Below are positions 11,467 through 31,653 of a stretch of 64,000 nucleotides of DNA, in pieces. Location: the NCBI GenBank assembly GCA_963662945.1, contig OY759974.1, forward strand, positions 1,120,001-1,184,000. The letters are read 5' to 3'. Each line of letters begins with the position of its first letter. Position 1 is the stretch's first letter. Below the pieces are notes generated by a model, which saw nothing but the letters and a program-made list of their open reading frames with translations, was not told the DNA's origin and did not search any database. The translations under genes and the position numbers were made by a program. This DNA is from Arcobacteraceae bacterium (GTDB taxonomy: Bacteria > Campylobacterota > Campylobacteria > Campylobacterales > Arcobacteraceae).

Positions 11467-11467
11467 T

Positions 11468-12731: not shown

Positions 12732-12754
12732 TATCCAAAATTTTATCTTTCATA

Positions 12755-12934: not shown

Positions 12935-12948
12935 AAACTAACTATATG

Positions 12949-13806
12949 CTATATTGATATAACTTTTAAATTGCCTTTTTGTGTAAAAAATATCTCATTA
13001 TAATAAGTTGTTAAATTACTTACTCTATCTTTAGTAATTTGACTAAATACTTTATTTTTAATATTAAATTTATACAACCCATTTCTAGCTTGAATAATAT
13101 AATATGATTTATCAAAACTTATTACTAATTTAATAGTATTTGGAACATCATTCTCAGGTAGTACATAGCGGCTTGTATCTCCATTTTTAATATTAACTAA
13201 TAATAAGCCAAAGTCATAATCTATTATTGCTAATTGATTGCTTTTGTGATCATAGTAAATATCTTGAGGATTGTTAATTTCTAATTTATGTAATGTTTTA
13301 TAAACAAATTGTGACTTTTTATTTTTATAATCAATTCTATAAACTCCTGAATTTAAAATTGAAAGAAAAATGACTCCGTCATGTGCAACAATAGATGTAA
13401 TAGGTATAGTTTGATCTTGATTATTGAATATATCTAAATATATATCATCAATAAAACTATCATTTCTTAAGTTTATTCCAATTAATCCTCTTGTATTAGA
13501 AATAATAAATAGTACTTGCAGTATAGGATCGATAGTAATAACTTGTGCATCATTTATACTTTTTACTTTCTCTGTATAATTACTATAATATTTGTATAAC
13601 CCATCTCTAGTTAGTATGTAAAACCTATTTCCATATGCTTTAATATCTAAAATTATTGTATTATTCAAATTAAAGTTTGGTTCAAATATTAAATTTTCAT
13701 ACTTTTTATATTTTGTCTTAATATAGTCTTTGGTTATCTCTCCATTTAAATAACTTTTAAATAAATATGATTTATAAATAAATAAGGAAGTGATAATATT
13801 ACTCAT
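12949..13806 (-). CDS. Hypothetical protein, probable beta-propeller
   Basis: Recurrent strand motifs (FYILTRDGLYKY, LFIISNTRGLIGI, IFLSILNSGVYRI, YIIQARNGLYKF); ATGA overlap with the upstream ORF. Confidence 0.55.
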   Translation of the reverse strand: MSNIITSLFIYKSYLFKSYLNGEITKDYIKTKYKKYENLIFEPNFNLNNTIILDIKAYGNRFYILTRDGLYKYYSNYTEKVKSINDAQVITIDPILQVLFIISNTRGLIGINLRNDSFIDDIYLDIFNNQDQTIPITSIVAHDGVIFLSILNSGVYRIDYKNKKSQFVYKTLHKLEINNPQDIYYDHKSNQLAIIDYDFGLLLVNIKNGDTSRYVLPENDVPNTIKLVISFDKSYYIIQARNGLYKFNIKNKVFSQITKDRVSNLTTYYNEIFFTQKGNLKVISI

Positions 13807-14240
13807 AATAACTTGCCTTCTATTAAGGTAGCAATTTCATCTTCAGATAAAATATCATTTGTACACCAAAACTCAAGTAGACTATTACCAATATCGTATT
13901 TTTTATTTTTTTCTTTAAAAGGAAAGACTGGATACCCATGCCAATCATCAGATTGAGGATTTTGTACTGCAGGAAAATAGCCAAACTGTTGTTTTTTTGT
14001 ACCAACTTTAATAATATCATTATCTTGCCTAATAAATCCCCACATATGCCCATTACAATCAATCCATTCTATACGTTGAGAATTTACCATTGTTCCAACT
14101 TCTGAAGTATCAAAAGTTTCAACTTCTAAAACTCTAGAAATCCATAGAGAATGCTTCTTATTTATACTGCTATAATGATGTTTTCCTCTGGATAGGTAAC
14201 TTTTAATACCTAATTTTGTAGGAAGTCTAATATCTCCCAT
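13803..14240 (-). CDS. Hypothetical protein, possible nuclease toxin
   Basis: 145 aa with KHH and a WHGYP motif; GAGG ribosome-binding site. Confidence 0.5.
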   Translation of the reverse strand: MGDIRLPTKLGIKSYLSRGKHHYSSINKKHSLWISRVLEVETFDTSEVGTMVNSQRIEWIDCNGHMWGFIRQDNDIIKVGTKKQQFGYFPAVQNPQSDDWHGYPVFPFKEKNKKYDIGNSLLEFWCTNDILSEDEIATLIEGKLL

Positions 14241-14251
14241 TTAATTCCTCA

Positions 14252-15001
14252 TTAGTTGATTGATTCAATATCTATCCATTCACCATAGTAATTGTCCGAG
14301 TACCAGTAAATTCTATCTCCTGTATCATATTTATTTCTATCATTTTCAAACTCTTGCTTTAAAGACTCAAAAATTGTAAATTTTAAAGTTTTAATTAAAT
14401 CTACTTTTTTATTATCAGTCTTAATATGAAGTTCTAAGGAGTAATTTCCATCTTTCCAATTAAAATGTTTTTCAAACAATTCTTCAAATGCCACAATAAA
14501 TGACTTATTTGCCCTTACTATTTCACCTTTTTCAGTTTCTTTTTTAATTCTTTCAATTTCATTTTTTAAGTTTCTTTCATTCTCTTTGTATTTTTTAACA
14601 TCATCTCTTGAAAAAAAATTTAAAAATCTTGCTCCATGGTGCCACTCCTCATTTGGATCAAGAGATACTTTCTTAAATGGAAAATAATAACTATCATTAA
14701 ATTTTTCTAAATAATTTTTTAAAGGCAATTTCATTATTTTTTCACCGTCTCTATAAACATCAATAAATATTTGATTTATGGATAAAGACGAACCACCAAT
14801 ATTTTTTATTATCAAATTTATTTGTATTATAGGATTACCAACATGATGTGTAATCCAAATTGAATCGTAAATATCAACTTCTAATTTTGCTTTTTTAAAG
14901 AAACGCCTAAGATAAGGAAGTGCACTTATTATCAGTGCTATAAAAGCAATAACCACACTCCAAAATTCTGGACGTGTGTAAAATGAAATATTATTATCCA
15001 T
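14252..15001 (-). CDS. Hypothetical protein with N-terminal TM helix
   Basis: FWSVVIAFIALIISALPYL anchor followed by a beta-rich soluble domain. Confidence 0.6.
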   Translation of the reverse strand: MDNNISFYTRPEFWSVVIAFIALIISALPYLRRFFKKAKLEVDIYDSIWITHHVGNPIIQINLIIKNIGGSSLSINQIFIDVYRDGEKIMKLPLKNYLEKFNDSYYFPFKKVSLDPNEEWHHGARFLNFFSRDDVKKYKENERNLKNEIERIKKETEKGEIVRANKSFIVAFEELFEKHFNWKDGNYSLELHIKTDNKKVDLIKTLKFTIFESLKQEFENDRNKYDTGDRIYWYSDNYYGEWIDIESIN

Positions 15002-15227
15002 TAGATATTTCCTAGTAGTAGTATAGTTAACATTTTAACATAGTATACTTATATTAAATAATAAAACTAAAATGTAATTTAATAAAATTTTTGTGTAGTA
15101 AAAATACCATTATTCTTTTTATTATTTAAAGTATATACTAAGTATGTGCAATTATTTTATTTTATAATATTGAAGTTTAATATTATTTTGTATACTCCTA
15201 GATACTCTTTGTAACTTATATTTACTA

Positions 15228-16973
15228 TTAAATATCTAGTATTTCAAGAATTTTACTTTCTAACCAATTTTTTCTATTTTCTATAGAAGTAGCATTCCAC
15301 TCCATAGGATAATCAGCAATAACTTTTTTAGTCATATCAAATGCTGTTACACCTGTATCATCTTCAGAATATTTACCTTTTCCTTTATAAATATTGATTT
15401 TTATATTATAAGGATTATTACTTGCAGAAATATTTTTTGAGCCACTCAATAGCGTTAAATTACCTAAACTATGTAAATATCTATTTACTTCATCTATAGT
15501 AAATTTATTTTTCCAATCATCAAATTCATTCCAACCAATTGGTAAAATGTGTTCTGTATGAATTGTATTATCTAAGTGAATGTACGCTAATTTTGCATCA
15601 TCTGTTATCCTATATTCTATTATTGTTAATAAAGGCTTTATCCATGCTGTATGATAAACATCATTACTATTAATCACTTCTTTAACTTGTTTTACAATAT
15701 TATCTTTTTCAAGTTTATTATTTAAACTAGTAGTTATATAGTTTATATGCTTTTTATCTTTTATCCATGAAATCATGTTAAATGAAATTTGTTTAATATG
15801 AGATAGTGTTTTTCCTGACATCCAATTTAAATAATAAAATCTTCTAAGAGAAATTTGTAACTCATCATAATATTCATAGTTTGTATGTAAAGCTGTAAGT
15901 AAAATACTCTTCCAGTATACTGTCCATCTTAAATACCAAAAGGAATAAAGTATTTTATCTTCCTTGTCCCAAATCTGATTTTTATAGGCATTAACAAACT
16001 CTGAAAAATCTTTTATGGTTTCATTTGGATCTTGTTGTTCAAAAATATCTTGCAATTCATCAGAAAGTGATTTTTTTGGATTTCTAGCAATTAAATAGTA
16101 AAGGTATAATGTAAACATATCGTTCATACTATCATATGTACCAGTTAATAAATTTTCTAAACGTCTCCATTCCGCAATAAACTCGTTTTCATCTTCTATC
16201 CTCGCTTCAAAATTTTCACCCTCATCAACATATTTTTTTTCTATTTGTTCTAATAAAAAGCTTTTTACTAAATCTGATGCAGTAAGGTCCATTCCCCTAT
16301 CATTTAAGACTTGAAATAGTTTTATTGCAAAACTTCTATCTTCACAATCTATTCTAATTATTGACACTTTATTAAATAAATATTCAATTAAATCTCCTGC
16401 TTTATCTTCACCAATCTCTTCAAGTTTACTTCTTAATATATAGGCACTATTTTGAAATTTCAACTTTGGTTGTTCATCATCCTTAAGTTGATACTTATAA
16501 GGTTTTTGATGCTTTAAAGTTGATCCCTCATTTATAATATTTTGTTTAAAGTCTGCAGAATGTTGGGGATCAGTAAGTAAAGTTAGTCTTTGATCACCAA
16601 AATTAAATATAGCACTGTTAATATGGTTTGTATTAATAGAATTTTTATTGTTATTAATATTAGGATATAAATCTCTTAATACACATAACAATATCATTAA
16701 AGTTGTTAACCTTTGTTGTCCATCAACAATATCAAATCTATTTGAACCCGCTTGCGGAGCTGCAGTAATTATTGAACCTAAAAAATAGTTTTTTGATTCA
16801 TTCTCAAATGATTCAAAAATATCATCCCATAACTGTTCAATTTGTTCATCTAGCCACTTATATGGTCTTTGATATTTAGGTATTCTATAAATAGAATCTG
16901 TATCCATAAAAAGTTGCTTTATTGTTCTTGATCTTGGTGTAAATAGTTCCAAATTATCCCTTTCATTAATCAC
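15228..16973 (-). CDS. GmrSD-family (DUF262 + DUF1524/HNH) nuclease, putative modification-dependent restriction enzyme
   Basis: IPKYQRPYKW, DGQQR and FQVLNDRG (DUF262); EHILP and LGNLTLLSGSKN (HNH-like). Confidence 0.88.
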   Translation of the reverse strand: MINERDNLELFTPRSRTIKQLFMDTDSIYRIPKYQRPYKWLDEQIEQLWDDIFESFENESKNYFLGSIITAAPQAGSNRFDIVDGQQRLTTLMILLCVLRDLYPNINNNKNSINTNHINSAIFNFGDQRLTLLTDPQHSADFKQNIINEGSTLKHQKPYKYQLKDDEQPKLKFQNSAYILRSKLEEIGEDKAGDLIEYLFNKVSIIRIDCEDRSFAIKLFQVLNDRGMDLTASDLVKSFLLEQIEKKYVDEGENFEARIEDENEFIAEWRRLENLLTGTYDSMNDMFTLYLYYLIARNPKKSLSDELQDIFEQQDPNETIKDFSEFVNAYKNQIWDKEDKILYSFWYLRWTVYWKSILLTALHTNYEYYDELQISLRRFYYLNWMSGKTLSHIKQISFNMISWIKDKKHINYITTSLNNKLEKDNIVKQVKEVINSNDVYHTAWIKPLLTIIEYRITDDAKLAYIHLDNTIHTEHILPIGWNEFDDWKNKFTIDEVNRYLHSLGNLTLLSGSKNISASNNPYNIKINIYKGKGKYSEDDTGVTAFDMTKKVIADYPMEWNATSIENRKNWLESKILEILDI

Positions 16974-17063
16974 AAATTATATATAAAAGTTATTTTATCT
17001 TAATAGTTGTAAGTAAAATGTTAAATAATTAAACTTCTAACTACCCTAAAAATTCATAAATTA

Positions 17064-17072
17064 TGATATACT
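17064..17072 (+). promoter_or_regulatory. Extended -10 promoter candidate for the tns operon
   Basis: TGATATACT (TGn-TATACT) about 30 nt upstream of tnsA. Confidence 0.4.
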
Positions 17073-17101
17073 ACTAAAATATGATAATAGGGAGAAATAA
17101 A

Positions 17102-17773
17102 ATGAGTAATAGTCATATTACTTTTCCACAAAGAAAAATCAAAAAAAGCTACCGTTCTGTTACTGGACACTTCCCTAGTATTAAAAACAATAAATCAATA
17201 GCATTTGAATCAAAACTAGAAAGTGAATTTTTTTTAACTCTTGAATTTGATGATAATGTAGCCACTTATCAAGAACAACCACAAATTGAAATTATTTTAG
17301 ATAATAAAACAACAACTTATAGTGCAGATTGTTATATACAAAGACCAAAGGGCTCTTTAAATCGTGATGCTCTTGTAGAAGTTAAATATACTACTGAATT
17401 GGAAAAAGAAAAAGAATATTTTGATAAGAAATTTAAAGCTATTGAAGCTTCTACTGAAGAACTTGATTTAGACTTTATAATTTATACAGAACTTCAATAT
17501 CCTCTAGAATATATTACAAATCTTAAATTTTTATATCGATATAGAACTCAACAAAGAGAAATGAGATATGATGAGATTATTAATGAACTATTACAAGATA
17601 AAAAATTATCTGCACATGAGTTAGCAGAAACTATCTCAAAAAATAAAGCGGAATATATTATTGTAGCAAATGCAATTTGGGGCTTAGTTGCAAATAATAT
17701 ACTCACAACTGATTTAAAATCATCTGAGATTAACATGAAATCTATACTGGAGAAAAATAATGGCTGTTGTTAA
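17102..17773 (+). CDS. tnsA: TnsA endonuclease
   Basis: RSVTG, FESKLE, YQEQP, YSAD and LVEVKY PD-(D/E)XK pattern; ATG 17102 follows GGGAG. Confidence 0.92.
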   Translation: MSNSHITFPQRKIKKSYRSVTGHFPSIKNNKSIAFESKLESEFFLTLEFDDNVATYQEQPQIEIILDNKTTTYSADCYIQRPKGSLNRDALVEVKYTTELEKEKEYFDKKFKAIEASTEELDLDFIIYTELQYPLEYITNLKFLYRYRTQQREMRYDEIINELLQDKKLSAHELAETISKNKAEYIIVANAIWGLVANNILTTDLKSSEINMKSILEKNNGCC

Positions 17774-19667
17774 ACTAACTCTAAATTCAACTATTGTTTT
17801 TGAAGGTGTAAAATATCTCATCAAAGGTTATGCTTCCCTTGATGAAGTTCTTGTAAAACAAATAGATCCACCTCATAAGGAAAAGATTTTAAAAGTTAGT
17901 GATATTATTAAAGAACCTCAAAACTCAACAGATAACATTCAAAGAGAACTTGTGGATACCAATGACAAAGAGTTTCAAAAAGCACTAGAGAGATACAAGG
18001 TAATAGAATCTTTAGTTGATATGCCAAGTAGAAACTCCAAAGAGGTACAAAAAGTTGCTAAAAAATATAAAAAAGGTGTAGCTACTGTTTATCGTTGGTT
18101 AAGTACTTTTGAAAAATTTGGTACTATTAGCTCATTGGTAGCTTCTTATAACAACTGTGGAGGTAAAGGGAAAAGTCGTCTCAATGAATCTGTAGATGCA
18201 GTTATAGACTCGGTACTTGAAGAACTATATCTCAATAAACAAAAATATGCTTTTCTAACAGTTTATAGAAAAATAGAGCAGCTATGTAAAAATCTTGAAT
18301 TAGAAGTTCCAAACAAAAACACGGTAAGAAGTAGAATCAAAGCACTAGACCCAAAACTTATCACTAAATATAGACATGGTGAAAAGATAAGAGATACAAG
18401 AGGAACACCTGGAAAGTTTCCAGAAGTAAAAATGCCCCTTGACGTTATACAAATAGATCATACTAAAGTTGATGTAATACTTGTTGACGAAGAGACAAGA
18501 GAAGAGATAGGAAGACCATTTATTACAGTTGCTATTGATGTATTTAGTAGAATGATATATGGTTTTTATATCTCTTATGAAGCTCCAAGTTTTTTTAGTG
18601 TTGGACAATGTCTTTTACATGCCATCTTACCCAAAGATGAAATATTAAAAAAATACAATGTAACTGGAGAATGGCCAGTTTTTGGTCTACCCCAAGCAGT
18701 CCATATGGATAATGGAAAAGATTTTCAATCAGTGAGTCTAAAAAAGTTTTGTCAAGAATATAGAATATCTGATATTTATAGACCCGTTGCTCGCCCAGAA
18801 TTTGGTGGAAAAATCGAGAGGGTGATAAGAACAGCAATGGAAAAAGTTCACGAATTACCAGGTTCAACATCTTCTAATATTCAGGACAAAGGAACCTATG
18901 ATTCTCAAAAAATGGCTACTATGACTATCAATGAATTAGAACAATGGTATACGGACTTTGTAGTAAATATTTATCATAAAACAATACATAGTAGCCTTGG
19001 TGTGACCCCTGAAGAAAAATTCTATGAGGGTATGTATGGAGTTAGTGGTGACTCTATACCTTTTTTACCACAAGTTCCTGCAGATACTATTAAACTAAAA
19101 ATGTCACTTCTTCCAGCTTTTGAAAGAACTGTACAAAAAAATGGAATCACAATAGACTATATAACCTATTTTTCCGAAACACTTAGAAAATGGATAGTAC
19201 CAGCAGCCTATAAAAAACTCAATAAGACTTCAAATACAATAACTTGCAGAAGAGACCCAAGAGATATTAGTAAACTTTATGTATATGACCCAGATATAAA
19301 TGATTATATAATTGTACCCTATGCTAATATTAAAAAGCCAGCTATGAACCTTACAGAGCTAAGAAGAGCTATTTCTGAAGCTAAGAAAACAGTAACAGGA
19401 AGAGAACTAGAATCATATGATATCTATGAAGCTTATGACAGACTTCACCAATATGTAGAAAATTCAAAAAGAGAAAAGAAGTCTGCAAGAAGACAAGCTA
19501 GTTCAAAAAAGCATTTAAAAAAGAATATTGAATACGAAAAACAAATCTTACAAGATGGTAATGGTCTTAAACAAGATGAGAAATCACTCCAAAACTCAAC
19601 AACTCATATCCAGAATACTTTTCAAGAAGAAGAGGATGATGGCTATGAATATTATCCAATTGGTTAG
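17760..19667 (+). CDS. tnsB: TnsB/TniA DDE transposase
   Basis: HTH (VATVYRW), QIDHT, HMDNG and GKIER catalytic triad, Mu-like C-terminal RDPRDIS. Confidence 0.95.
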   Translation: MAVVKLTLNSTIVFEGVKYLIKGYASLDEVLVKQIDPPHKEKILKVSDIIKEPQNSTDNIQRELVDTNDKEFQKALERYKVIESLVDMPSRNSKEVQKVAKKYKKGVATVYRWLSTFEKFGTISSLVASYNNCGGKGKSRLNESVDAVIDSVLEELYLNKQKYAFLTVYRKIEQLCKNLELEVPNKNTVRSRIKALDPKLITKYRHGEKIRDTRGTPGKFPEVKMPLDVIQIDHTKVDVILVDEETREEIGRPFITVAIDVFSRMIYGFYISYEAPSFFSVGQCLLHAILPKDEILKKYNVTGEWPVFGLPQAVHMDNGKDFQSVSLKKFCQEYRISDIYRPVARPEFGGKIERVIRTAMEKVHELPGSTSSNIQDKGTYDSQKMATMTINELEQWYTDFVVNIYHKTIHSSLGVTPEEKFYEGMYGVSGDSIPFLPQVPADTIKLKMSLLPAFERTVQKNGITIDYITYFSETLRKWIVPAAYKKLNKTSNTITCRRDPRDISKLYVYDPDINDYIIVPYANIKKPAMNLTELRRAISEAKKTVTGRELESYDIYEAYDRLHQYVENSKREKKSARRQASSKKHLKKNIEYEKQILQDGNGLKQDEKSLQNSTTHIQNTFQEEEDDGYEYYPIG

Positions 19668-19679
19668 GTTAGGTAAAAA

Positions 19680-20549
19680 ATGAATAATAGAATCTTAATT
19701 AAAGAAGCTGAAGAATATTTAACTAAAAGTGACGAAGAGAGAATTCTCTATTGTAAAAAAGATCATTGGATAGGATATGGAGCAGCTGTAAAATTGTTAG
19801 AACTTCTAGAAGATAAATTTGAAGACCCTCCACAAATGAGACATGAAGGGTTATTAATATATGGAGATCCTAATAATGGGAAAACTGCAATATTGAAAAA
19901 AATGTACAATTTACATAAAACCAATTTAGACTATGTAAATAAAGAAAATGAGATTGTCTATGAGATACCAATTATCTATTTTCAAGCACCTACAATTCCT
20001 GATGAGAGTAGATTGTATAGTTTAATACTCAATGAACTTTTGGTACCACACAAGCATACTGAAAAGATAGTAGAAAAAGCAAAATTATGTGAACACTATC
20101 TTAGAAAACTAGGTACTAAAATGATTTTAATTGATGAAATTCATAGTGCTCTAACAGGAAATCTCAATAAACAAAGAACTTTTATAGATGATTTAAAACA
20201 ACTAAGCAATAGACTTTCTCTAACGATTATCTTAGCAGGAACGAGAGAAGCACACTCAGCACTTTCTATTGGGAGTGAAACGAATACTAGATTTCCTTCT
20301 CTTGAACTTCCACGCTGGAACAATGATAGAAAGTTTAGATCTTTTGTAGCTACTTATGAAAGATGTTTACCACTTAAACTCGCTTCAAATCTGGCTGACA
20401 ATCCAGAGATTATGAATGCTTTATTTTATCAATCAGAGGGTTTAATAGGTAAGACTGTAAATCTTTTGAAAAAAGCAGCTGTAAAAGCAATCAAATCAAA
20501 AAGAGAATATATCATAGCTAGTGATATAGAGTACTTACCAAAACTCTGA
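19680..20549 (+). CDS. tnsC: TnsC/TniB AAA+ ATPase (short type)
   Basis: WIGY, Walker A GDPNNGKT, Walker B ILIDEIH; 289 aa. Confidence 0.92.
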   Translation: MNNRILIKEAEEYLTKSDEERILYCKKDHWIGYGAAVKLLELLEDKFEDPPQMRHEGLLIYGDPNNGKTAILKKMYNLHKTNLDYVNKENEIVYEIPIIYFQAPTIPDESRLYSLILNELLVPHKHTEKIVEKAKLCEHYLRKLGTKMILIDEIHSALTGNLNKQRTFIDDLKQLSNRLSLTIILAGTREAHSALSIGSETNTRFPSLELPRWNNDRKFRSFVATYERCLPLKLASNLADNPEIMNALFYQSEGLIGKTVNLLKKAAVKAIKSKREYIIASDIEYLPKL

Positions 20550-20551
20550 TT

Positions 20552-21733
20552 ATGGCACAGTCAAAGAGAAATCAGGATTGGGTTCAAGACTATTTCTTTT
20601 TGATTATTCCAAAACTTCTACCAGATGAGTTATTAAGTTCATGGCTTACAAGATTAGCAATTGAACATAGATATAAACTTTCTGACTTTCTATCTTTATT
20701 TGTTAGAAAACAAGGACATAAAATCTGTAATATAGATATAGATTTTCAGTACAATGAAAAATTATTTCTAACCTTAGCTTTAAAAAGCAATATACCTATA
20801 AAAGATATTTGGAAACTGTCCCTTAGTAGTGAAGAGGGATATCTCTATTCCTGTAATGATTGCCTCTATCCTCCTAAACAAATAAGAAAATTAAAAGACA
20901 AAAGAACACACTATGGACTGATGTTTTGTCCAAAATGTTTAGCTGAAGATAAAATACCTTATTTTAGAAAAAAATGGAGATACTATTTTTATAATGCTTG
21001 TCCTAAACATAATATTTTTTTAACAGATAGATGTTGGTGCTGCTATGAAAGAATTTGTCTTCCTAAAATATCACATATGAAAGGTTTATCATATTGCAGT
21101 AGATGTGAAAAAGATTTAAGTACTACTATAGCAATACCTTTACAAAGTAATTATCAATATGCTTTAAAGGCTATACGATGGTTTGAAAAAGGTTTAAAAA
21201 AAGGCTATTTTATCATCAATCATCAAAAAGTAGCTTCTCTATTTGTCTTTGAAAGCTTCACAAATCTTTGCTTTTTACTTGATAGAAAAGAAAATTTAGT
21301 TTTAGATAACTTTCCAATGATTCAAGAATACGAAACAATATGTAAAAAACTTGCAAAATATGATTCTAAAAAAGCAACTTCTATACAAAAAGATTTTATC
21401 TTAACAGCAATGGTATATTTTTTATTTCAAAACTATCCAAAAAATATTCTAAGTTTTGCAGAAACTAACCATCTAACACATAGAGAATTTGTACATGGTT
21501 TTATAGATATCCCATATTGGTACAAAAATATAATTGACGAACTACTACCAGCACAAAATAAAATTGGTAGAGAGATAAGTGAAAGTGAAGTTAGAGCAGC
21601 TATAAAATATTTACAGAAACAGAATACTAAAGTAACACAGGAGGCAGTTGCAAACATTGTTGGCTGTCATTTTAGTATTCATAAGGGATTTGTGAAAATT
21701 TATAAAGATGCAAAAAAGTATTTGACCTTATAA
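20552..21733 (+). CDS. tniQ: TniQ/TnsD target-selection protein with C-terminal HTH-like extension
   Basis: PDELLSSWLTRLA, CPKC...CPKH and CWCC...CSRC zinc ligands; C-terminal EVRAAIKYL...VTQEAVANIVG. Confidence 0.9.
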   Translation: MAQSKRNQDWVQDYFFLIIPKLLPDELLSSWLTRLAIEHRYKLSDFLSLFVRKQGHKICNIDIDFQYNEKLFLTLALKSNIPIKDIWKLSLSSEEGYLYSCNDCLYPPKQIRKLKDKRTHYGLMFCPKCLAEDKIPYFRKKWRYYFYNACPKHNIFLTDRCWCCYERICLPKISHMKGLSYCSRCEKDLSTTIAIPLQSNYQYALKAIRWFEKGLKKGYFIINHQKVASLFVFESFTNLCFLLDRKENLVLDNFPMIQEYETICKKLAKYDSKKATSIQKDFILTAMVYFLFQNYPKNILSFAETNHLTHREFVHGFIDIPYWYKNIIDELLPAQNKIGREISESEVRAAIKYLQKQNTKVTQEAVANIVGCHFSIHKGFVKIYKDAKKYLTL

Positions 21734-21734
21734 A

Positions 21735-22736
21735 CTAATCCTTGATTTTATCAAATAAGTCAAACTCTATTGTATATTTATTAATTCTAAAATACCCTTC
21801 GCTTGATGATGCAGAGTAAGAATCAGTAAATGGGTAATGTATATGTAAATTTATATCCTGATTATCATAATATTCATTCTCAAATATATAAAATAAAGCA
21901 ATTCCTATAGTTTGCGCTTTTGTTGCTAAAGGAGCTAAATGAATATTGTTAACTGCACTTTTATTTATAGATACATATTTTTTAACATATTCTGAAATAA
22001 CATGAGCTGTAATAAATGGGTTATTAGCAGGAGCATAAAGCAATTCTGTATTTTCTTTTATACCAAGTTCAGTTTTTGATTTTAATAAATTTAATATATT
22101 TTCTTGATACATAATAGCTTGCAAAGAAGGAAAACCAATTAATGGTTTAATTTCATTTGCTGTGACATTACGTATAACTTTATTAACCAATTTAGAATCA
22201 TATCCTACATTTACTATAAATAAATCATTTTCTCCTGATTTTGAGTATGTTTCGTATGGTGAGACAATATTTCTTGATTCAACAATATTATCAGAAAATT
22301 TTGTTTTATCACTTTTTAAATATCTCTGAGGTTCTGTATAAATTAAGTCGAATTTATCGATTCCCTTTTCTTTAAACCAAAATAAAAGAAAAACTAAATA
22401 AGGCTTATTAAAACCTGTTGTATCTATACAAATTTTATCCTTATCAGTAATATTTATATATTTTTCACACATGGCATTAATATATTCAGATTCTTTAATA
22501 TTATGATTAATTATATTATATTCAAAGATTTCACCATTAATTTGGGAAGTATCTATATTGTATTCTGGGAAAATTAAATATATCTTTTTTTCTGCCTGTA
22601 TATTATCATATGTTTTAATGACAATATCTTCTTGTGTGTATGCAGAGATAAATAAATCATAATTTTCAATATCTGTAGAAAACTCTTCAAAGCTTCTATA
22701 AGAATCATAATTAAAAAGATGATACTTACTAATCAT
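21735..22736 (-). CDS. Uncharacterised alpha/beta protein, last gene of the 4-gene cargo operon
   Basis: 333 aa (IDTTGF, YTEP, GFPSL, LAPLATK); 1-nt overlap with the ATPase stop. Confidence 0.65.
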   Translation of the reverse strand: MISKYHLFNYDSYRSFEEFSTDIENYDLFISAYTQEDIVIKTYDNIQAEKKIYLIFPEYNIDTSQINGEIFEYNIINHNIKESEYINAMCEKYINITDKDKICIDTTGFNKPYLVFLLFWFKEKGIDKFDLIYTEPQRYLKSDKTKFSDNIVESRNIVSPYETYSKSGENDLFIVNVGYDSKLVNKVIRNVTANEIKPLIGFPSLQAIMYQENILNLLKSKTELGIKENTELLYAPANNPFITAHVISEYVKKYVSINKSAVNNIHLAPLATKAQTIGIALFYIFENEYYDNQDINLHIHYPFTDSYSASSSEGYFRINKYTIEFDLFDKIKD

Positions 22737-24745
22737 TATAAAGTATCTCCAAATAAACTAGGAGTAATAAAAGAAAGCACTTTTTCTTTTTTGTTGAAAG
22801 GGGCATTATATCTTGACATATACTCTTTATGAATATTTAGCCATTCTTTATCTTCACCTTTACATAATATCTCTATATCATCAGCTTTAAATTGAAAAGT
22901 TCCTCCTATAGCAATATGCAAATCCCATTTTGCTGTTAAGATTGCAGGGACAGAATAACTATCCAACATCATTCCAGAGTTATTTTTTTCTTTTTTATCA
23001 ATACTTTTTTTTATTAGTAACATATGATTAACTGCTTTAGTAAGAATTGACTCTGATTCCTCTGATAATGTACCCTTATAGGAAAAAGCAATCAATGTTT
23101 TCTCCGTAGGTTTATTTGACATTCGAAATGCTTTAAAAAAACTATTTATTCTCTCTATCATTTTAATAACGAGTTTATTTTCTATATCTATAATTGCATA
23201 AGTCCAAAACTCATCTGAAGCATCTTTTATTGCTTTATATTGAGTTTTACATTTTATGGGATTATTACTATCAAACATAGGTTCTTCAGAAAATTTAGAA
23301 TTAATATAAATTTCACTTAATATCAACATTAAATTTCTAGGATTTGCATGCGAAAAATCAATTATTTTTTCAAGACCACAATTAAAAAATGTTATCGAAT
23401 AATCTCTACAAATCTGAAAGTAAAAGGTATTTTTTAAATGCCTAAGAGTTTCATTATCATGAATATTTTTAGAACTTCCTTCCATTGAACTTTTAATTTC
23501 TATACTTTTTTCAACTAAATTCTTGTTTTTACTCCAAGCTTGATATAGCAACCATATATTTTCTTTTTCTTTAAGTGGATCCATTGGACAAAATAAATTA
23601 TCTATTATAATTGATATTTCATCTAATGATAAACTTAATTCTTCTGAATATTCTTCTAACTGTTTTGATAAAGTTAAAAAATACTTTCTATCTTTCGAGT
23701 CAGGATGAATATCTAATACTTTTTTGATTATTTGATTTTCATTTAATTTTTGAAAAGAATCAATAAGAGCTTTCTCATCTAAATTAGCAAGATTTTTATT
23801 AAGTCTTTTTCTAATTAAATTAATAGCAAACTGTTTATAGTTGTTTGAATTATCAAGGTATGTTTCTAAATATTTTTTCGTTACTTCTGCATATGAATTT
23901 TTTTCATCATCTGAAAAAGTTTTTTCTTCTTTTATTGAATATAATCTACCTGATATTCTTATTGAAATTCTTTCTGAATATTTAGGGTGTCTTAAAATTG
24001 TATTCACAAAAACTTGCTGTTCTTTACTTAAATCTTCAAACTGGTCTAATAAAAATAAGAATCGAACATCTTTCAAAATCTTACTAGAATCTAGTATATA
24101 ATAACATATATCATAGAACATATTCGATCTTGTATCGAAAACTACATCAATATCAAGAGAATCTTTAAATCCTGTACGTAATCTCGAAAAAGCCCTATCA
24201 ACTTTTTTATGTTCTTGTCGGATTTTTTTATATATATACTCTATTGTAATTGTTTCATCAACTGAATCAAAAAAACACTCATTATACATACTAGAAACTT
24301 TTTCACAGTCTATATCATCTAACCCATTTAGCTGTAAATCTATTATTTGTTCTAAAAATGCTTCAATCAAAATTAAATTAAAATAATAAAAATACCACTC
24401 TTCCCAAATTGACTTATCTAATTTTGAGCCACTAAATCTTTCAAACTGAAAGTTTCCTAATTCTAATAGTAAACTTGTATATTTATCCTCTTTAATTTGC
24501 TCTAATATGGATCTATGTGTCGTTTTTAAAGCTCTAATTTTTTGAGCCTTATAAGAGCAATATCGTAAAATGTGAGTTTTCCCACTTCCTTTTCCGCCTA
24601 ATATTATTAAAGGTCTAGGATTTGTAGGTTCAATTACATCCAAAAACTTTTTATGTTCAATTTCATCATTTAATTCAACCCAAAAATTAACTATTTCATC
24701 ATTATTTAAATGAACAGCTTTAATATTTGAAAATGGATTATTCAT
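22736..24745 (-). CDS. P-loop ATPase (ORC/Cdc6- or STAND-like)
   Basis: Walker A GGKGSGKT, Walker B FLLDQFE, later SHANPRNL sensor-like motif; 669 aa. Confidence 0.75.
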   Translation of the reverse strand: MNNPFSNIKAVHLNNDEIVNFWVELNDEIEHKKFLDVIEPTNPRPLIILGGKGSGKTHILRYCSYKAQKIRALKTTHRSILEQIKEDKYTSLLLELGNFQFERFSGSKLDKSIWEEWYFYYFNLILIEAFLEQIIDLQLNGLDDIDCEKVSSMYNECFFDSVDETITIEYIYKKIRQEHKKVDRAFSRLRTGFKDSLDIDVVFDTRSNMFYDICYYILDSSKILKDVRFLFLLDQFEDLSKEQQVFVNTILRHPKYSERISIRISGRLYSIKEEKTFSDDEKNSYAEVTKKYLETYLDNSNNYKQFAINLIRKRLNKNLANLDEKALIDSFQKLNENQIIKKVLDIHPDSKDRKYFLTLSKQLEEYSEELSLSLDEISIIIDNLFCPMDPLKEKENIWLLYQAWSKNKNLVEKSIEIKSSMEGSSKNIHDNETLRHLKNTFYFQICRDYSITFFNCGLEKIIDFSHANPRNLMLILSEIYINSKFSEEPMFDSNNPIKCKTQYKAIKDASDEFWTYAIIDIENKLVIKMIERINSFFKAFRMSNKPTEKTLIAFSYKGTLSEESESILTKAVNHMLLIKKSIDKKEKNNSGMMLDSYSVPAILTAKWDLHIAIGGTFQFKADDIEILCKGEDKEWLNIHKEYMSRYNAPFNKKEKVLSFITPSLFGDTL

Positions 24746-25729
24746 TCAACTATTTCCTTTTTTTAAAAGCATATACTTTTTACTATATCGTTTAAATATT
24801 GATTGCCATTGCTTATTATTTGCCCAAAATATGGGAAGACTATTATTAGGAATATTATAAAAAAACCCTAATGCTAATTGGCCATCAGCAAATCCACACT
24901 CGTCCTTATTTAATTTTTTATTTTCATCTCTACTAATATCTTCATTTCCTAACTCAAACTTTTTTGAATAAGTATTTACACATAGTTCTTTAAATTCTTC
25001 TTTACAATTAGAAATAGTTTGAAAATATCTAGAAGTATCTGAAAAAACCTTATATGTCTCATCCAATTCAAAAATAGTATCAACATTATCAAATAGTTTT
25101 GAATCTTTTAGAGTTTTTAATGCTGTAGTAGTTGCAAATAGCGTGAAATATGAAATTTTAATTTTAGGAACTTTAGTTCTAATCTCTGAAATAATTTTAT
25201 GAAAACTTTCATTAGTTGCCTGACTACCACTACCACTTATATCATCAATATAAATTAACTGTTCTAGTTCATTATATTTTTCATTAACTATTAGTTCACA
25301 AGAATGAATAAATAATTCCTTTGGAATATTATTTCTTTGCCTAAAAAAATAAAGTATTATACTACTACTTTCTGATGGATTACCAATACTAGAAAATCTA
25401 GTTTTTAATAAGCTGTCATCTAAATATTCATTGTAATCATTTAACTTTAATGATTTCATTTCTTTTCTATATTTCTTTACTAAAGGAGCAATATATTTAT
25501 CTTTATATAATGATTTTAAAGCCTGTTTTATTTCTCTCTGATCATAAAACATAAATTGACTAAGAAGACTTAACGCAATAAACTTATTTTTATTTCTTTT
25601 ATCAGAAACTTCTTCAAAGTTCTTTAACCATTCTTCTATATCTTGTTCTAAAACTTTATGTCCCCATAACCATGTTGATAAATCTTGTATTTGGTCTTTT
25701 AACTTTTGTATTTGATTATTATATGTCAT
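24746..25729 (-). CDS. Phosphoribosyltransferase-fold protein
   Basis: PRPP-loop motif LIYIDDISGSGSQ; also GNPSESS and IPNNSLPIFW. Confidence 0.7.
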   Translation of the reverse strand: MTYNNQIQKLKDQIQDLSTWLWGHKVLEQDIEEWLKNFEEVSDKRNKNKFIALSLLSQFMFYDQREIKQALKSLYKDKYIAPLVKKYRKEMKSLKLNDYNEYLDDSLLKTRFSSIGNPSESSSIILYFFRQRNNIPKELFIHSCELIVNEKYNELEQLIYIDDISGSGSQATNESFHKIISEIRTKVPKIKISYFTLFATTTALKTLKDSKLFDNVDTIFELDETYKVFSDTSRYFQTISNCKEEFKELCVNTYSKKFELGNEDISRDENKKLNKDECGFADGQLALGFFYNIPNNSLPIFWANNKQWQSIFKRYSKKYMLLKKGNS

Positions 25730-27092
25730 TATTTTTCTTAAATACTACAATATATTCTCTAGAAATAACACTAGCAGTTTTATTCCTTTTTGTCATTAAT
25801 CCTCGAGATTTAATATCATCAATTAAAATTAACTCTGTTGAAAATCCAATTTTTTCAGCAATCTTTATTAAATATTTATGGGTCATAAACTCATACCCTG
25901 CAATAGTATTATTACCAATTACCATCACAAAATAACCATTATTTTTTAAAACTTTATAATAATGAGTAAAAGATTCCTGCATTTCAAGTAAGTATTTATA
26001 TGTAATATAGGCTCGTAACTTATTTTTTTCATAAATCTTTAATAATATTTTATCAATTTTATTTATCCCAAAAACATGTAACTTGTCATATTCTTTTTTT
26101 GGAAAGTGTTCTCTACCAATTGATTGCTTATCTAATTCAGCAATCGTAGAATTATTTAGCTCTAGCCACTGTAAACTTAAACTAGAAGCTCTGATATATT
26201 TTTGTGCACTAACATAAGGAGGTGAAGTTAAAATCAATTGAACCGTATTTTTTTTAATATCTTTTTTTGTTAAATGTTTAATATCACTATTATATACAGT
26301 AACTTCATTTGAACTTAACATTGTACTATTTTGATATTCAACAAGTCTAGCTATATTCTTATTGGCTTGTTCAATAAAAAATTCAAAAACTTTACTTTTA
26401 TCAATAAATTTTAAATTTTTTATAGCAGCTTCTCTAAGAGAATGACCTTCTGGAAATTTATCTTTATTAATTTTTACTGGTACTGAAATTCTAGGATCAG
26501 AATAACTGAACTTTTTACAACAAATAGAAAAAACTACCAAATAAAACTCTTTTATATTTTGATCACTAATTTGACTAACGATATCTTTAATTTTAGATAA
26601 TTTTCGCATATTTTGTTTACTATACCAATGTTCTATATTTGACACTTTAGGTATATGATATTGTTTTTTAGAGCTGCTATAAATTTCAAAAAGATTTTTA
26701 ATATTTTCTAACTCTTGTTTTAAATTAATTATATCTACTTTGGAAGTTTTTGTTTTTGCAATTAAAGCAGCTAGTGGATTAACATCAACACCTATTGCAT
26801 TTCTATTAGCAAGAGATGCTTCTAATAGTACTGTTCCTGTTCCACAAAAGGGATCTACTACTATATCTTGTTCTCTAGAAAAAACTGTATTATTTAAAAA
26901 AAAATATGGTATTTGCTGTAATAACTTTGCAGGATAAGAATGTATAAAATGAGTATGTCTATCCATATTTACAATACTAGGTACTAATTCTCTAAAATTA
27001 ACAGTTATTGGTTCTTGATTCTCTTTATATTTATTTATTAATTCTAAAATATAATTATCAAAAAAACTAATACCCTTATATTGTTTATTCAT
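25719..27092 (-). CDS. Amino-group DNA methyltransferase (probably m4C; motif I before motif IV)
   Basis: HSYPAK, SAM-binding DPFCGTGT, catalytic TSPPY. Confidence 0.88.
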   Translation of the reverse strand: MNKQYKGISFFDNYILELINKYKENQEPITVNFRELVPSIVNMDRHTHFIHSYPAKLLQQIPYFFLNNTVFSREQDIVVDPFCGTGTVLLEASLANRNAIGVDVNPLAALIAKTKTSKVDIINLKQELENIKNLFEIYSSSKKQYHIPKVSNIEHWYSKQNMRKLSKIKDIVSQISDQNIKEFYLVVFSICCKKFSYSDPRISVPVKINKDKFPEGHSLREAAIKNLKFIDKSKVFEFFIEQANKNIARLVEYQNSTMLSSNEVTVYNSDIKHLTKKDIKKNTVQLILTSPPYVSAQKYIRASSLSLQWLELNNSTIAELDKQSIGREHFPKKEYDKLHVFGINKIDKILLKIYEKNKLRAYITYKYLLEMQESFTHYYKVLKNNGYFVMVIGNNTIAGYEFMTHKYLIKIAEKIGFSTELILIDDIKSRGLMTKRNKTASVISREYIVVFKKNNDI

Positions 27093-27167
27093 TACTGCCC
27101 CAATTAATTCTTAATTTGTTAATATAACAAATTCAAGCTGCTATTAAGATAAAATGGTAAGTAAATT

Positions 27168-27947
27168 TTAAAATTCTATTTCAATACCTATTGGACAATG
27201 GTCAGAACCTTCTATTTCATCTAAAATAAAAGCATCTTTTAGTTTATTTTGTAAATCACTAGAAATAAAAATATAGTCAATTCTCCAGCCTTCATTTTTT
27301 ACTCGTCCTCTTGATCGATAAGACCACCAAGTATAAGCTTCTTCTTTTTCTCCATGAATCTGTCTATAGGTATCTATATAACCTACTTGGATAAACTTAT
27401 CTACACACTCCCTTTCAATATCAGAAAATCCAGACTTACTATATATTTTAGTTTTTTTTAAATCAATATCTTTATGTGCAATATTAAAATCACCACAGAT
27501 TATTATAGATTTTCCATCAGCTCGTAATTCTTCACAATGTGAAAAAAATTTATTATAAAAATTAATTTTAAATTCTAATCTTTCTTTTGATATCTTGCCA
27601 TTTGGAAAATAAACATTGAAAACTACTATATTTTCATAGTGTTGCTCAATAACCCTACCTTCCATATCAGCATCAACTAATTCACAAGTATTTTCTCTGA
27701 CGAAATCTATATTAGAATATGTCAAAGTACCAGATAAACCTTTCGTAATACCACTATTTACTGTAAAATTTTTATACTGTTTATTAAAGCTTTTAGGTAT
27801 TTCTTCTTTTATTGCTTTAATCTCTTGTAGACATAAAATATGAGGATGGATTTCATCAACCCAAAAAAAAGAATCTTTTTTTGCAGCAGCTCTTAAACCA
27901 TTAACATTCCATGAAAATATTCTTATTTTTTCTTTTAAAGTTTTTAT
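27168..27947 (-). CDS. xth: Exodeoxyribonuclease III / AP endonuclease (no canonical start codon)
   Basis: Frame open upstream of the track ORF through FSWNVNGLRA and LCLQEIK. NVYFPNG, GDFNIAH, RIDY and SDHCP intact. Best start is ATA 27947, 7 nt after AGGA. Confidence 0.85.
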   Translation of the reverse strand: MKTLKEKIRIFSWNVNGLRAAAKKDSFFWVDEIHPHILCLQEIKAIKEEIPKSFNKQYKNFTVNSGITKGLSGTLTYSNIDFVRENTCELVDADMEGRVIEQHYENIVVFNVYFPNGKISKERLEFKINFYNKFFSHCEELRADGKSIIICGDFNIAHKDIDLKKTKIYSKSGFSDIERECVDKFIQVGYIDTYRQIHGEKEEAYTWWSYRSRGRVKNEGWRIDYIFISSDLQNKLKDAFILDEIEGSDHCPIGIEIEF

Positions 27948-27963
27948 TAATATTTCCTATTAG

Positions 27964-29670
27964 CTATAAAAATATCTTTCCAATTAATCCAACTACCCAT
28001 TTAAACTTTTCATTATCAGTTAAATTTTCATTTCTCTCATGATTTTTTGTAGTGAATTTAATAGAACTCTCTTTATCTTGTTTTTTCATAGTATTTATTG
28101 CTTCAAGATCTTTAAAATGACGTGCTATGAAAATATGAAAATCACTATCCAAAATCTTTTGTTCTGATACCAATATCCAACTACTAGAAGCTGATGAAGG
28201 ATAATTTTCAAGTTCCAAAATTCCTACATGGAAATTTTTATAAATAAACGTTGCAGTTAAATACTGTCTAGGTCTACCATGCATCATACATTTAGAATTT
28301 ATATCTTCTGTATCTTTGATTGTAACTTTTGGCAACTCTTTTACCTCACTTAAATAAAATGATATTATCTCTTTTTGTATTTTTAAAAAATCCATGTATT
28401 GTCTAAATACTACAAAATTATCTATCTCAGATAAAGGCTTTGACTCATTCTGCTCTTTTTCAAAATTACTTGATACGACTACTTTTCTAATTTTTTTCTT
28501 CCCTTTTGTAGAAGACTCTGTTAGACTTTGATCAACTGCCTCATCAGATTGATGTTCTTCATAGATTTTAAATAAATCAATTATAGTCTCTTTAGTTACC
28601 GTCTCACTTTCAATTTCAATACCTTGAAGACTTCCACAAGTTTTTCTTTTTTCTTTTTGATGTTGAGTCTGAGTATTTTTTTTACTAGCAGCTTCAACTT
28701 TTAAAATTTCTGTTGTTTCATCTGGATTTTCTATATCTACTTTTGGTAAATTTTCTAATTCATCAATATCTGTTATTACCTTGTCTTTTTCATAATATTT
28801 AGTAAATTTATCAAAACCAATATCTGAATAATCATTTGTTATCTCATGCACATAATAAAATTCTTCATTTGTATCATCATTTTTCAATAAAGCTGCTCTT
28901 GTTTCAATTTTAAATATTTCTTTTATAGGAAACTTTACTTTAATAGGAACTGTCTTTATATCTTCTTTTTCTGGATAATTGTCATGCATAAACTTTAAAT
29001 AACTATGTATATACTTTGCAACATCTTCAAAAGCATAAGTTGCATCAGACTGACAGGCATATCTGTGAATAAAAGCAGCATCTGCATCTATTCTTGGATA
29101 TCTTAGTACAATTGAAGCATCATCCCTATCACAACAACAACCACTATATAGGTCATCTAATTTACATTTTAATACTGCTTCTCTTAAATGGGTAAATCTA
29201 TAGTAAAAGTAAATTGCAACTGCATAGTGGGGGATAATAATATTTACATTATCTTGTTTGAATAAATAACAATAGTTATACTTAGCTTCTTTTAAAAATT
29301 TTCTTTTCCAACCTATTAGTGAAACTATACTTTTTTCATCAAGTATTTTATGTAAATGTAAAGTATTGCTTTCTGCCAAATGTGTCGTATCAATAAGAAA
29401 GCTTTTTTCAGTTATATCTTTATTCGTATAATATTTAGTTTTGTCACCCTTTAGAAATGATTTTTCTAAAGGATAGTGGGTAAACAAAAGTTCAGGTGAC
29501 ATTTCATATAAAAAAACTTCTTTTTTTGTTATATTTTTGACTACAACATCAAAATGACTTTGACTATATTCTTCATCATCAAGTCTTAATCTAAGAGGAA
29601 AAAGTATTTTAAAAATATCTGTAGGATTATCTACCATAAATTCAGGGATAACACTCTTAGACTTTGACAT
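27964..29670 (-). CDS. TnsE-like protein
   Basis: 568 aa with blocks colinear with Tn7 TnsE as I recall it: IIIPHYAVAIYF~YHIPQLELARSLF; YYVHEI~YLVEEI; NFVVFRQYMDFLK~RFAAFDELLSILK; LPKV...C..GRPR~LPKV...C.DGSPR; GILELE~VLLEVD. Confidence 0.7.
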   Translation of the reverse strand: MSKSKSVIPEFMVDNPTDIFKILFPLRLRLDDEEYSQSHFDVVVKNITKKEVFLYEMSPELLFTHYPLEKSFLKGDKTKYYTNKDITEKSFLIDTTHLAESNTLHLHKILDEKSIVSLIGWKRKFLKEAKYNYCYLFKQDNVNIIIPHYAVAIYFYYRFTHLREAVLKCKLDDLYSGCCCDRDDASIVLRYPRIDADAAFIHRYACQSDATYAFEDVAKYIHSYLKFMHDNYPEKEDIKTVPIKVKFPIKEIFKIETRAALLKNDDTNEEFYYVHEITNDYSDIGFDKFTKYYEKDKVITDIDELENLPKVDIENPDETTEILKVEAASKKNTQTQHQKEKRKTCGSLQGIEIESETVTKETIIDLFKIYEEHQSDEAVDQSLTESSTKGKKKIRKVVVSSNFEKEQNESKPLSEIDNFVVFRQYMDFLKIQKEIISFYLSEVKELPKVTIKDTEDINSKCMMHGRPRQYLTATFIYKNFHVGILELENYPSSASSSWILVSEQKILDSDFHIFIARHFKDLEAINTMKKQDKESSIKFTTKNHERNENLTDNEKFKWVVGLIGKIFL

Positions 29671-29691
29671 TTTATTTTCTTATTTTATTCT

Positions 29692-29760
29692 CAATATCAA
29701 ACTTTAATAAAATCATTATCAAACTTTATTGTCCATTATCAAACTTTTTTGTTTCTTACA
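29692..29760 (-). repeat. Right end: terminal TGT plus three closely spaced TnsB-binding sites
   Basis: Minus strand reads TGTAAGAA-ACAAAAAAGTTTGATAATG-G-ACAATAAAGTTTGATAATG-ATT-TTATTAAAGTTTGATATTG (sites at 29734-52, 29714-32, 29692-710). Confidence 0.9.
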
Positions 29761-31653
29761 TTTCATATCAATATGCAAATGAATAATATCCACAGCACTC
29801 GGTGTAACCCCACTTATTTGAGAAGCGTTAAAAAGTGTTGGTGGATTGAACTTTTTAAGCTTTTCTATAACTTCTGTTGAAAGTCCAGGGAGTTCATCGT
29901 AGATAAAATCTTCTGGTATCTTTAGATTTAACATCTTTTTCATTTTCTCTATCTGTTTTTGTTGTTTATCCACATATCTATAGTATTTTGCTTCCACTAT
30001 CACTTGCTCCTTTAAATAGTCATCAAGAGAAGCAAAACTAGGAACGAGTCTATCAAATTTTTCTTTTGTGATAGTGTTTCTTCCTACTAAATCTACGAGT
30101 AAAATTTGGTCTGAAATTTTATCTTCCCCTAACTCTTCAAGAAGTGCTAGGTTTTCTTTTTTTGATGTGAACCACTCATTTTCCATAAACTCAATAGCAT
30201 CTTTGATAGTTTGTTTTTTGTGTTCCATAGTTTTAAATGTATCATCATCTATAAGTCCAAAATCATGTCCATACTCCATAAGTCTCATATCAGCACTCTC
30301 TTCTCTTAAAAGAAGTCTGTACTCTGCTCGACTTGTAAACATTCTATATGGTTCATTTGTCCCTTTTGTTACAAGGTCATCTATTAAAACTCCAATATAA
30401 CTCTCATCTCGTCTTAATATAAAAGGCTCTTTACCATCAATTGCTAAACTAGCATTTATACCCGCCATTAACCCTTGCGCTGCTGCTTCTTCATATCCAG
30501 TTGTTGCGTTGATTTGTCCTGCTAAATAAAGATTTTTTATCTTTTTTGTTTCAAGGGTATGTTGCAATTCTGTTGGGTCTATGTAGTCATATTCTATGGC
30601 ATAAGCATATCTTACGATTTTTGCATTTTCAAGCCCTTCTATTGAGTGTATCATCTGCTTTTGTACATCAATAGGTAAACTTGAACTAAGCCCATTGATA
30701 TAATACTCTTCAGCTCTTTTTGTTTGTGGCTCTAAGAAAAGCTGATGTCTTTCACGTTCAGCAAATCTATTTACTTTATCTTCAATACTTGGACAATATC
30801 GTGGACCAGTCCCTTCAATTTGTCCTGTAAAAAGTGGTGCTCTATCAAAATTACTTCTTATAGTATGGTGAGTATCAAGATTTGTATATGTAATATAACA
30901 AGGAAGTTGCGTAGGATGAAACTCTTCTTTGTTTGTTCTAAAACTAAATGGATGTGGATCTTCATCTCCCCCGTGTGCTTCCATAACTGAAAAGTCTATT
31001 GAGTTTACATTTATCCTTGCAGGAGTTCCTGTTTTTAATCTTCCTACATTAAGACCCAATATTTTTAATTGGTCTGAAAGTGTAGTTGATGGTAATTCCC
31101 AAGCACGACCTGCTGGATATTGATTTTCACCAATGTGAATTAATCCTTTCATAAAAGTACCTGTAGTCAAAATAACTTTTTTTGCTTCAAAAGTTTCCCC
31201 AAGTTTTGTCTCTACTCCAAATACTGAAAGTTGATTATCTTGTGCATCTACTTTTAAAGCACTCACTTCATCTTGATATACATCTAAATTTGGAGTATTT
31301 AACGTAACATTTCTCATATATTCTCTATATGCATCCATATCAATCTGAGCACGACTTCCTTGAACTGCTGCACCTTTAGAAGCATTTAAAATTCTAAATT
31401 GAATACCAGTTGCATCAGTACACAATCCCATCTCACCACCAAGGGCATCTAGTTCTCGAACTAAATGTCCTTTAGCAAGTCCTCCAATAGCTGGATTACA
31501 ACTAGCTGCTCCTATTTGTTCCACTAACATAGTTATAAGTAAAGTTTTTTTACCCATTCTTGCAGCTGCAAGACTTGCTTCTATTCCAGCATGTCCCCCA
31601 CCAACTACTATAACATCATATTGTGATGATTGTTCTTGTGTTTGTTTTGTCAT
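29719..31653 (-). CDS. mnmG: tRNA uridine 5-carboxymethylaminomethyl modification enzyme; last 13 residues encoded by the transposon end
   Basis: [25 protein letters not shown] and [11 protein letters not shown] motifs. Confidence 0.97.
29761..29765. repeat. 5-bp target-site duplication, right copy (TTTCA)
   Basis: Identical to 11148..11152. Confidence 0.9.

Follow-up and report, generated by a model that had tools for sequence, protein, structure and literature searches.

What is a DNA methyltransferase doing at a locus with no recognisable restriction nuclease, in a tightly coupled operon with a phosphoribosyltransferase-like protein, a large ATPase and a fourth protein that a preliminary description left as unknown? 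The question is raised by four genes of an Arcobacteraceae bacterium (GCA_963662945.1), which we analysed within a 64,000-nucleotide (nt) stretch of contig OY759974.1 (positions 1,120,001-1,184,000; this whole stretch is the window, and coordinates follow its numbering unless another locus is named). Our analysis indicates that the four genes constitute a single conserved cassette, probably with an anti-phage, immune role. All four are intact open reading frames (ORFs) on the minus strand (21735-27092), encoding in order the methylase (457 aa), the phosphoribosyltransferase (PRTase; 327 aa), the ATPase (669 aa) and a protein built of CARF domains (333 aa). Successive genes are joined by an 11-nt overlap, by abutting TGA and ATG codons, and by a 1-nt TAATG overlap. 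The unit and its junctions were as the preliminary description had them, as was the AT-rich composition (24.5% G+C in the operon vs 28.9% in the genome), and family searches of the operon proteins agreed with it that the operon holds no restriction nuclease. A promoter scan upstream of the operon returned 8 matches where 8.3 were expected, i.e., the level of chance.

Neighbourhood conservation had been proposed as a check on the unit, and the genes were found to co-occur elsewhere in the same order. A single-protein scan of GTDB contigs gave no loci; a search with a CARF alignment did, and the best 80 of 176 loci were analysed. The four genes lay in order in 69 of the 80, and in 65 of the 68 loci with at least 4.6 kb of upstream sequence. 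Three loci departed from this order: one has a transposase upstream (L056), one carries the methylase downstream on the opposite strand (L061), and in one a single long ORF replaces the first two genes (L082). The 65 complete loci span 14 named phyla, with two further records that carry no label; having been picked by CARF similarity, they are not independent samples. The constancy of order nevertheless argues that the arrangement is not due to chance. All four genes are also present on four of five viral contigs, the fifth of which ends early, and the ATPase was found in eight plasmid records. Within the host family the ATPase occurs in 3 of 184 genomes, this one included, and in none of the 27 others in the genus. 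Genome G324 carries the same element with unequally diverged proteins (methylase 68% identical, PRTase 33%, ATPase 32%, CARF protein 39%), and a close relative, G547, carries the PRTase, ATPase and CARF genes without this methylase.

The fourth gene (21735-22736, minus strand) is not an orphan. Its product is a tandem-CARF, SAVED-like protein of the CARF6 family with no fused effector, matching PADLOC CARF6--CARF_CARF_CARF (PDLC01914, E 2e-89) over residues 4-325; it has no Pfam match. Structure prediction, as had been suggested for this protein, gave a confident model (predicted local distance difference test, pLDDT, 92.9) with a CARF/SAVED fold. The model matched the CARF domain of Csm6 (Z 12.4, root-mean-square deviation [rmsd] 2.5, 120 aligned), Can1 across both halves (6sce; Z 12.0, rmsd 3.7, 219 aligned) and the SAVED domain of Cap5 (Z 9.9, rmsd 4.3, 201 aligned), as well as the CARF domains of Can2 and Card1, with Z scores ranging overall from 12.4 to 8. 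Residues conserved in the CARF protein include D105, T272, K273 and Y307. CARF folds are known to bind soluble nucleotides, and CARF and SAVED domains are known receivers of cyclic messengers made by Cas10 or CD-NTases. The identification of the fourth gene as a tandem CARF therefore makes this protein, and not the ATPase, the probable sensor. SMODS, Cas10 and mCpol matches over cut-off were found in none of five carrier genomes (other cyclase types were not searched), and three of the five had sub-threshold TIGR02578 matches of 50-75 residues. If no cyclase supplies a messenger, the CARF fold must bind something else, and a receiver without a recognised cyclase makes the identity of that ligand a directly testable question. 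There were no CARF matches in 50,697 phage records, and the Atlas returned only unnamed clusters, plus an automatic 'CRISPR-associated protein' label on one homologue.

The PRTase (24746-25729, minus strand) belongs to the PRTase-CE family (PF24390, E 9e-54), has a type I phosphoribosyltransferase fold, and also matches the PADLOC retron profile PRTase_III-A (E 7e-36). In an alignment of 65 sequences, D162, D163 and G168 of its phosphoribosyl pyrophosphate (PRPP) loop, IDDISGSG, were invariant. The model (pLDDT 90) found its best structural matches among type I PRTases (Z 10.1, rmsd 3.4, 140 aligned), where uracil, orotate and purine PRTases scored within 1 Z of one another; we therefore rejected uracil as a substrate inferred from fold matches. 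Profile searches with the PRTase and ATPase alignments detected no solved structure at E values up to 1. Activation of the related PRTase of retron Eco11 is reported to lower PRPP by about 50%, and its PRPP motif to be required for defence (PMC12746101). These findings on a relative support an effector role, and the PRTase is likely to be the effector, acting on PRPP or on nucleotides, as the preliminary description had inferred.

The ATPase (22736-24745, minus strand) is an ORC-CDC6-like protein (PF24389, E 8e-81, residues 3-615) that also weakly matches the ATPase part of PADLOC CARF6--CARF_STK_AAA (E 6e-8). Its Walker A motif (GGKGSGKT) is intact, its Walker B motif (LLDQFE) is a variant, and the next acid after the Walker B position, E237, is invariant among aligned relatives. 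Complex prediction for the ATPase with the PRTase scored 0.00. The motifs that had been noted in the first three proteins (SPPY, IDDISGSG and Walker A/B) were thus all recovered. Of the earlier proposal that the ATPase senses or switches, the switch is supported, and sensing would pass to the CARF protein.

The methylase (25719-27092, minus strand) matches Pfam N6_N4_Mtase (E 3e-17) and, over nearly its full length, PADLOC MTase_II (E 7e-52). Its motifs follow the alpha-class order, with FxGxG at residues 80-87 (DPFCGTGT) and SPPY near residue 291. SPPY methylases suggest N4-methylcytosine as product, and this sequence motif suggests the same mark here. It is the most conserved component of the cassette (median identity 42% across the 65 loci). 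The MTase_II match points to a site-specific DNA methylase of the Type II restriction-modification kind; the operon contains no cognate endonuclease, and no nuclease recurs in the neighbour clusters of the 80 loci, where only sporadic HNH, DUF4365 or PD-(D/E)XK genes were seen. Classical restriction-modification was rejected on these grounds. Identity as a tRNA methylase was also rejected: labels of the Trm11 type had been assigned automatically, and over its full length the protein matches DNA methylases. Palindrome avoidance across the genome revealed no clear methylase target.

We then placed the cassette in the wider range of its ATPase family. A PF24389 search of 1,100 genomes in three large groups (400, 350 and 350) identified 24 genomes besides the centres, a lower bound, since three candidates were scored per genome. 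With at least 24 carriers in this sample, the class is not rare. CARF6 adjoined or was fused to the ATPase in 24/24 loci (20 by the first profile, four after one iteration). The slot before the ATPase was occupied by PRTase-CE in eight loci, HD-CE in six, a fused kinase in five, a calcineurin-like protein in three, and a ParA-like domain and an unassigned N-terminal extension in one each; distant metagenome loci added three TIR fusions and one SIR2 fusion. TIR and SIR2 are established NADase effectors. A DNA methylase adjoined the ATPase-CARF pair in 17 of the 24 loci, and these methylases were of different classes (C5 in eight, SPPY in four, NPPY/F in four, Dam-type in one); DruA adjoined it in three. 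The methylase subfamily of the present cassette recurs beside TIR variants too (E 1e-56 to 1e-126). The invariant pairing and the exchanged neighbours indicate that the ATPase and CARF protein form a fixed core, that the effector slot, here holding the PRTase, is interchangeable, and that a DNA modifier is the usual companion.

Two arrangements among these loci were seen besides. DruA, known from Druantia, lies next to ATPase-CARF in L147, L157 and L164, all of which lack an adjacent methylase, as if it filled the place of the DNA modifier. In L158, a Glycos_transf_3-family protein (11045-12253 of that locus), which is TrpD/thymidine phosphorylase-like and represents a different phosphoribosyltransferase fold, has a C5 methylase on one side and a kinase-ATPase-CARF fusion on the other.

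Genes of thymidylate and dUTP metabolism were a further recurrent neighbour. ThyX, ThyA or a trimeric or dimeric dUTPase, all of which lower dUTP relative to dTTP, lay within 1.5 kb of 26 of the 65 complete loci, mostly abutting the cassette, upstream or downstream, on either strand, and in about ten different arrangements. Such genes occurred at 26 loci in the near flank (192 kb of sequence) and at one locus in the farther flank (737 kb). Where the cassette included a thymidylate synthase, a separate ThyA was encoded elsewhere in 5/5 genomes checked. Of five genomes checked for dUTPase, one had a second copy, and in four the cassette gene was the sole PF00692 match. The cassette of this window contains no ThyX, ThyA or dUTPase.

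How might these parts work together? In the mechanism that we favour, the methylase would mark host DNA. A phage degrading the chromosome would then release a methylated nucleotide or short oligonucleotide, which the tandem CARF would bind; the ATPase would switch on the PRTase, and the draining of PRPP would constitute an abortive anti-phage response. Such a system would deplete nucleotide precursors rather than cut DNA. That a methylated breakdown product can be a trigger has precedent in PUA-Cal-HAD, which is reported to sense m6-dAMP, a nucleotide freed by phage-driven chromosome breakdown (bioRxiv 10.64898/2026.01.15.699771). We prefer this model because it accommodates a methylase without a nuclease, methylases of exchangeable class, and methylase-free copies, which could use a host mark; even so, we judge its chances to be slightly under even. 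By excluding uracil from DNA, the frequent extra ThyX, ThyA or dUTPase would either limit false triggering through excision repair or buffer a leaky effector. The broader generalisation, a widespread immune class with a CARF protein but no cyclase, in which a private methyl mark, made soluble by phage attack, is read by the CARF protein, relayed by the ATPase to plug-in effectors, and restrained by thymidylate or dUTPase genes, is offered more tentatively still.

Several observations weigh against the released-mark model. No methylated deoxynucleotide is, to our knowledge, among the characterised ligands of CARF and SAVED domains, which are oligonucleotides rich in adenylate, cyclic or linear. 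The check for cyclases comprised four models (PF18144, TIGR02577, TIGR02578 and PF18182) in five genomes only. The Walker B motif of this ATPase has Q at a position where relatives have E (56/60; Q in 4/60). In the CARF tree the deep nodes were unresolved and one supported clade (98/94) mixed SPPY, C5 and DruA partners, so that the tree does not show CARF lineages tracking methylase class. Neither a methylase nor DruA adjoined the pair in four of the 24 ATPase loci (one at a contig end), and a search of the whole G547 genome with this methylase as query found none; such loci would either depend on a methylase of the host or be non-functional. Lastly, ThyX follows two C5/HD-CE cassettes (L145 and L155); as it also accompanies HD-CE, the association with thymidylate genes is not peculiar to PRPP loss.

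The preliminary description had proposed that methylation marks self. Self-marking in the restriction-modification sense is less supported than a released mark: the methylase class is exchanged between loci, G547 has the other three genes without this methylase, and CARF folds are known to bind soluble nucleotides. A nuclease-free form of self/non-self recognition, along the lines of that proposal, would have ATPase-CARF read DNA directly, pass over methylated host sites and make the PRTase fire on an unmethylated invader, following BREX-type logic with a metabolic effector. The methylase is present in 17/24 ATPase loci and 65/68 close loci and is the best conserved gene, and ORC/Cdc6-clade ATPases are described as scaffolding BREX (PMC12839542), all of which would suit this explanation. 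We nevertheless consider it unlikely: the methylase-free but intact-looking G547 copy should be self-toxic, no specificity subunit recurs among the neighbours of the best 80 of 176 loci, and a CARF fold suggests that the ligand is soluble. Alternatively, the methylase could be bait or antitoxin in a guard system, with phage anti-restriction proteins (DNA mimics or S-adenosylmethionine lyases) releasing the ATPase and PRTase. Guard systems are common, the translational coupling suggests a stoichiometric complex, and the methylase has no nuclease to serve; however, unrelated methylase classes and DruA fill the same slot, which is hard to reconcile with a fixed protein interface, and the CARF protein is left without a role, making a guard improbable.

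The thymidylate and dUTPase neighbours raise the prospect of uracil-stress sensing, in which the CARF protein would bind dUTP or uracil-containing or abasic DNA fragments, a stress characteristic of phages that disturb dTTP supply, the methylase would be a passenger or regulator, and ThyX, ThyA and dUTPases would prevent autoimmunity. Four unrelated enzyme families that lower dUTP/dTTP abut the cassette in about ten arrangements, the cassette thymidylate synthase is additional to the ThyA elsewhere in 5/5 genomes, and uracil PRTases are among the top PRTase fold matches. Yet 39 of the 65 loci, and the copy in the window, have no such gene, the dUTPase is the only PF00692 match in 4/5 genomes, the uracil PRTase matches are tied with orotate and purine enzymes as described above, and the strict retention of the methylase goes unexplained. 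We regard this explanation as unlikely. A role outside defence, as an addiction or maintenance module of mobile elements or a regulator of nucleotide stress, would be in keeping with carriage on Tn7-like elements, integrase-flanked islands, eight plasmid records and five viral contigs, and with patchiness in the host family (3/184 genomes), but patchy mobile distribution is equally typical of defence, and TIR, SIR2, HD-CE and calcineurin in the effector slot are typical of immunity; we think it very improbable. A probable defence role, as proposed in the preliminary description, is supported, and the released-mark model remains our preferred account of it.

The carrier is a Tn7-like element of 18.6 kb (11148-29765), delimited by inverted repeat I12 from TGT at 11153 to ACA at 29760, inserted in the last codons of mnmG and flanked by a 5-bp duplication (TTTCA); its ends carry repeated AAAGTTTGA sites. 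The genes tnsA-tnsB-tnsC-tniQ (17081-21733, plus strand; Pfam TnsA-like, rve/Mu-transpos_C, TniB and TniQ) converge on the cassette, with one base between the stop codons of tniQ and the CARF gene. Together with the element ends and the duplication, they confirm the earlier assignment as Tn7-like cargo. L084 shares this insertion site and layout, and in L111, too, mnmG lies alongside. An internal second copy of the left end (12782-12935, 72% identical to 11127-11282) is preceded by a flank resembling the mnmG tail.

Upstream of the methylase by 75 bp lies an exonuclease III gene, xth (27168-27950 or 27168-27953, minus strand; TIGR00633, E 2e-74), with no ATG, GTG or TTG where homology begins and a possible ATA start. 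No other exonuclease III match occurs in this genome, and this one lies within the transposon; xth occurs in 11 of the 27 other genomes of the genus. It also stands beside the cassette in L084 and L133. We rejected it as a fifth core gene, since it accompanies 0/80 loci, and L108 and L111, which have the same transposon, lack it; its position in G324 next to an unrelated methylase-HNH locus counts further against membership. That locus, on a plasmid-like island (L166, 6225-11422), has a tandem pair of SPPY/SPPF methylases, an HNH-like gene in convergent orientation and a further xth. At the mnmG-side end of the transposon, a 568-aa gene (27964-29670) with no Pfam, NCBIfam or PADLOC match is conserved in L108 (46%) and L111 (56%), each time in the corresponding place, and is broken in L084. 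Other cargo consists of a GmrSD-family modification-dependent nuclease (15228-16973) and four ORFs (11691-15001; 346, 285, 145 and 249 aa) that match no family significantly. Close relatives of this transposon have a ~221-aa gene that runs towards the CARF gene, the two overlapping slightly (L108, 8285-8962; L111, 10043-10708; L112, 764-1429), and in L108 and L111 it matches phosphoribosylanthranilate isomerase (PRAI).

The PRTase, ATPase and CARF protein match catalogued families (PF24390, PF24389 and CARF6; PADLOC PDLC01914-01925) over nearly their full length, and they are arranged as in the wider, probably catalogued cassette type: PF24389 with a P-loop, CARF6 directly after it and a predicted nucleotide-targeting effector directly before it. 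Makarova et al. 2020 and Nicastro et al. 2023 are probably where the PRTase-CE, ORC-CDC6-like and CARF6 families were first defined. Prior computational description of the unit is likely. A full-text literature search found no study of this cassette, the likely source papers of the families lying outside that search; a kinase-ATPase-CARF fusion relative was described in 2014 (PMC4012209). The PADLOC run that had been suggested, with PADLOC 2.0 and NCBIfam (June 2026), found no named, tested system matching the ATPase or CARF protein above threshold, in line with the preliminary description. The locus is genuine and intact, and belongs to a widespread and catalogued class, probably immune and apparently untested. 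This copy extends the list of examples without contributing a new part; it is, however, compact (5.4 kb) and clonable, and the cassette suggests what orphan methylases of a kind that has no nuclease partner may do.

Among known systems, Type III-A retrons (Retron-Eco11) have in common with the cassette the PRTase effector family, the PRPP loop and a G-x14-PNN motif; they depend on a reverse transcriptase, whereas the sensor module here is ATPase plus CARF protein. As the complete genome contains no match to reverse transcriptase PF00078 (noncoding RNA was not searched), retron identity was rejected despite the PRTase_III-A match. The tested systems ShosTA, DS-32 and Ophion share a PRTase effector (the DS-32A match was sub-threshold, E 0.018), and MADS, BREX and DISARM share a methylase with an ATPase, but in both groups the partners differ entirely; for the core of the latter (Mad1-8, PglZ/BrxC and DrmABC) there were only partial, weak matches (mad2, 8e-13 over 49 residues; mad8, 2e-4). 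Type III CRISPR CARF effectors, CBASS SAVED effectors and Panoptes have a CARF/SAVED-like ligand-binding fold in common with the cassette. They use a cyclase, and none over cut-off accompanies the cassette or was found in the five carrier genomes; moreover, the cassette CARF protein stands alone with its effector in a separate gene, unlike the CARF/SAVED effectors of Type III CRISPR and CBASS. PUA-Calcineurin-CE-HAD may share its logic, which is proposed to be a released methyl barcode followed by nucleotide depletion, and related PUA systems are reported to be often methylase-linked, as is the cassette (10.64898/2026.01.15.699771). It differs in having a PUA sensor fold and no ORC/Cdc6 ATPase, and in relying on host Dam.

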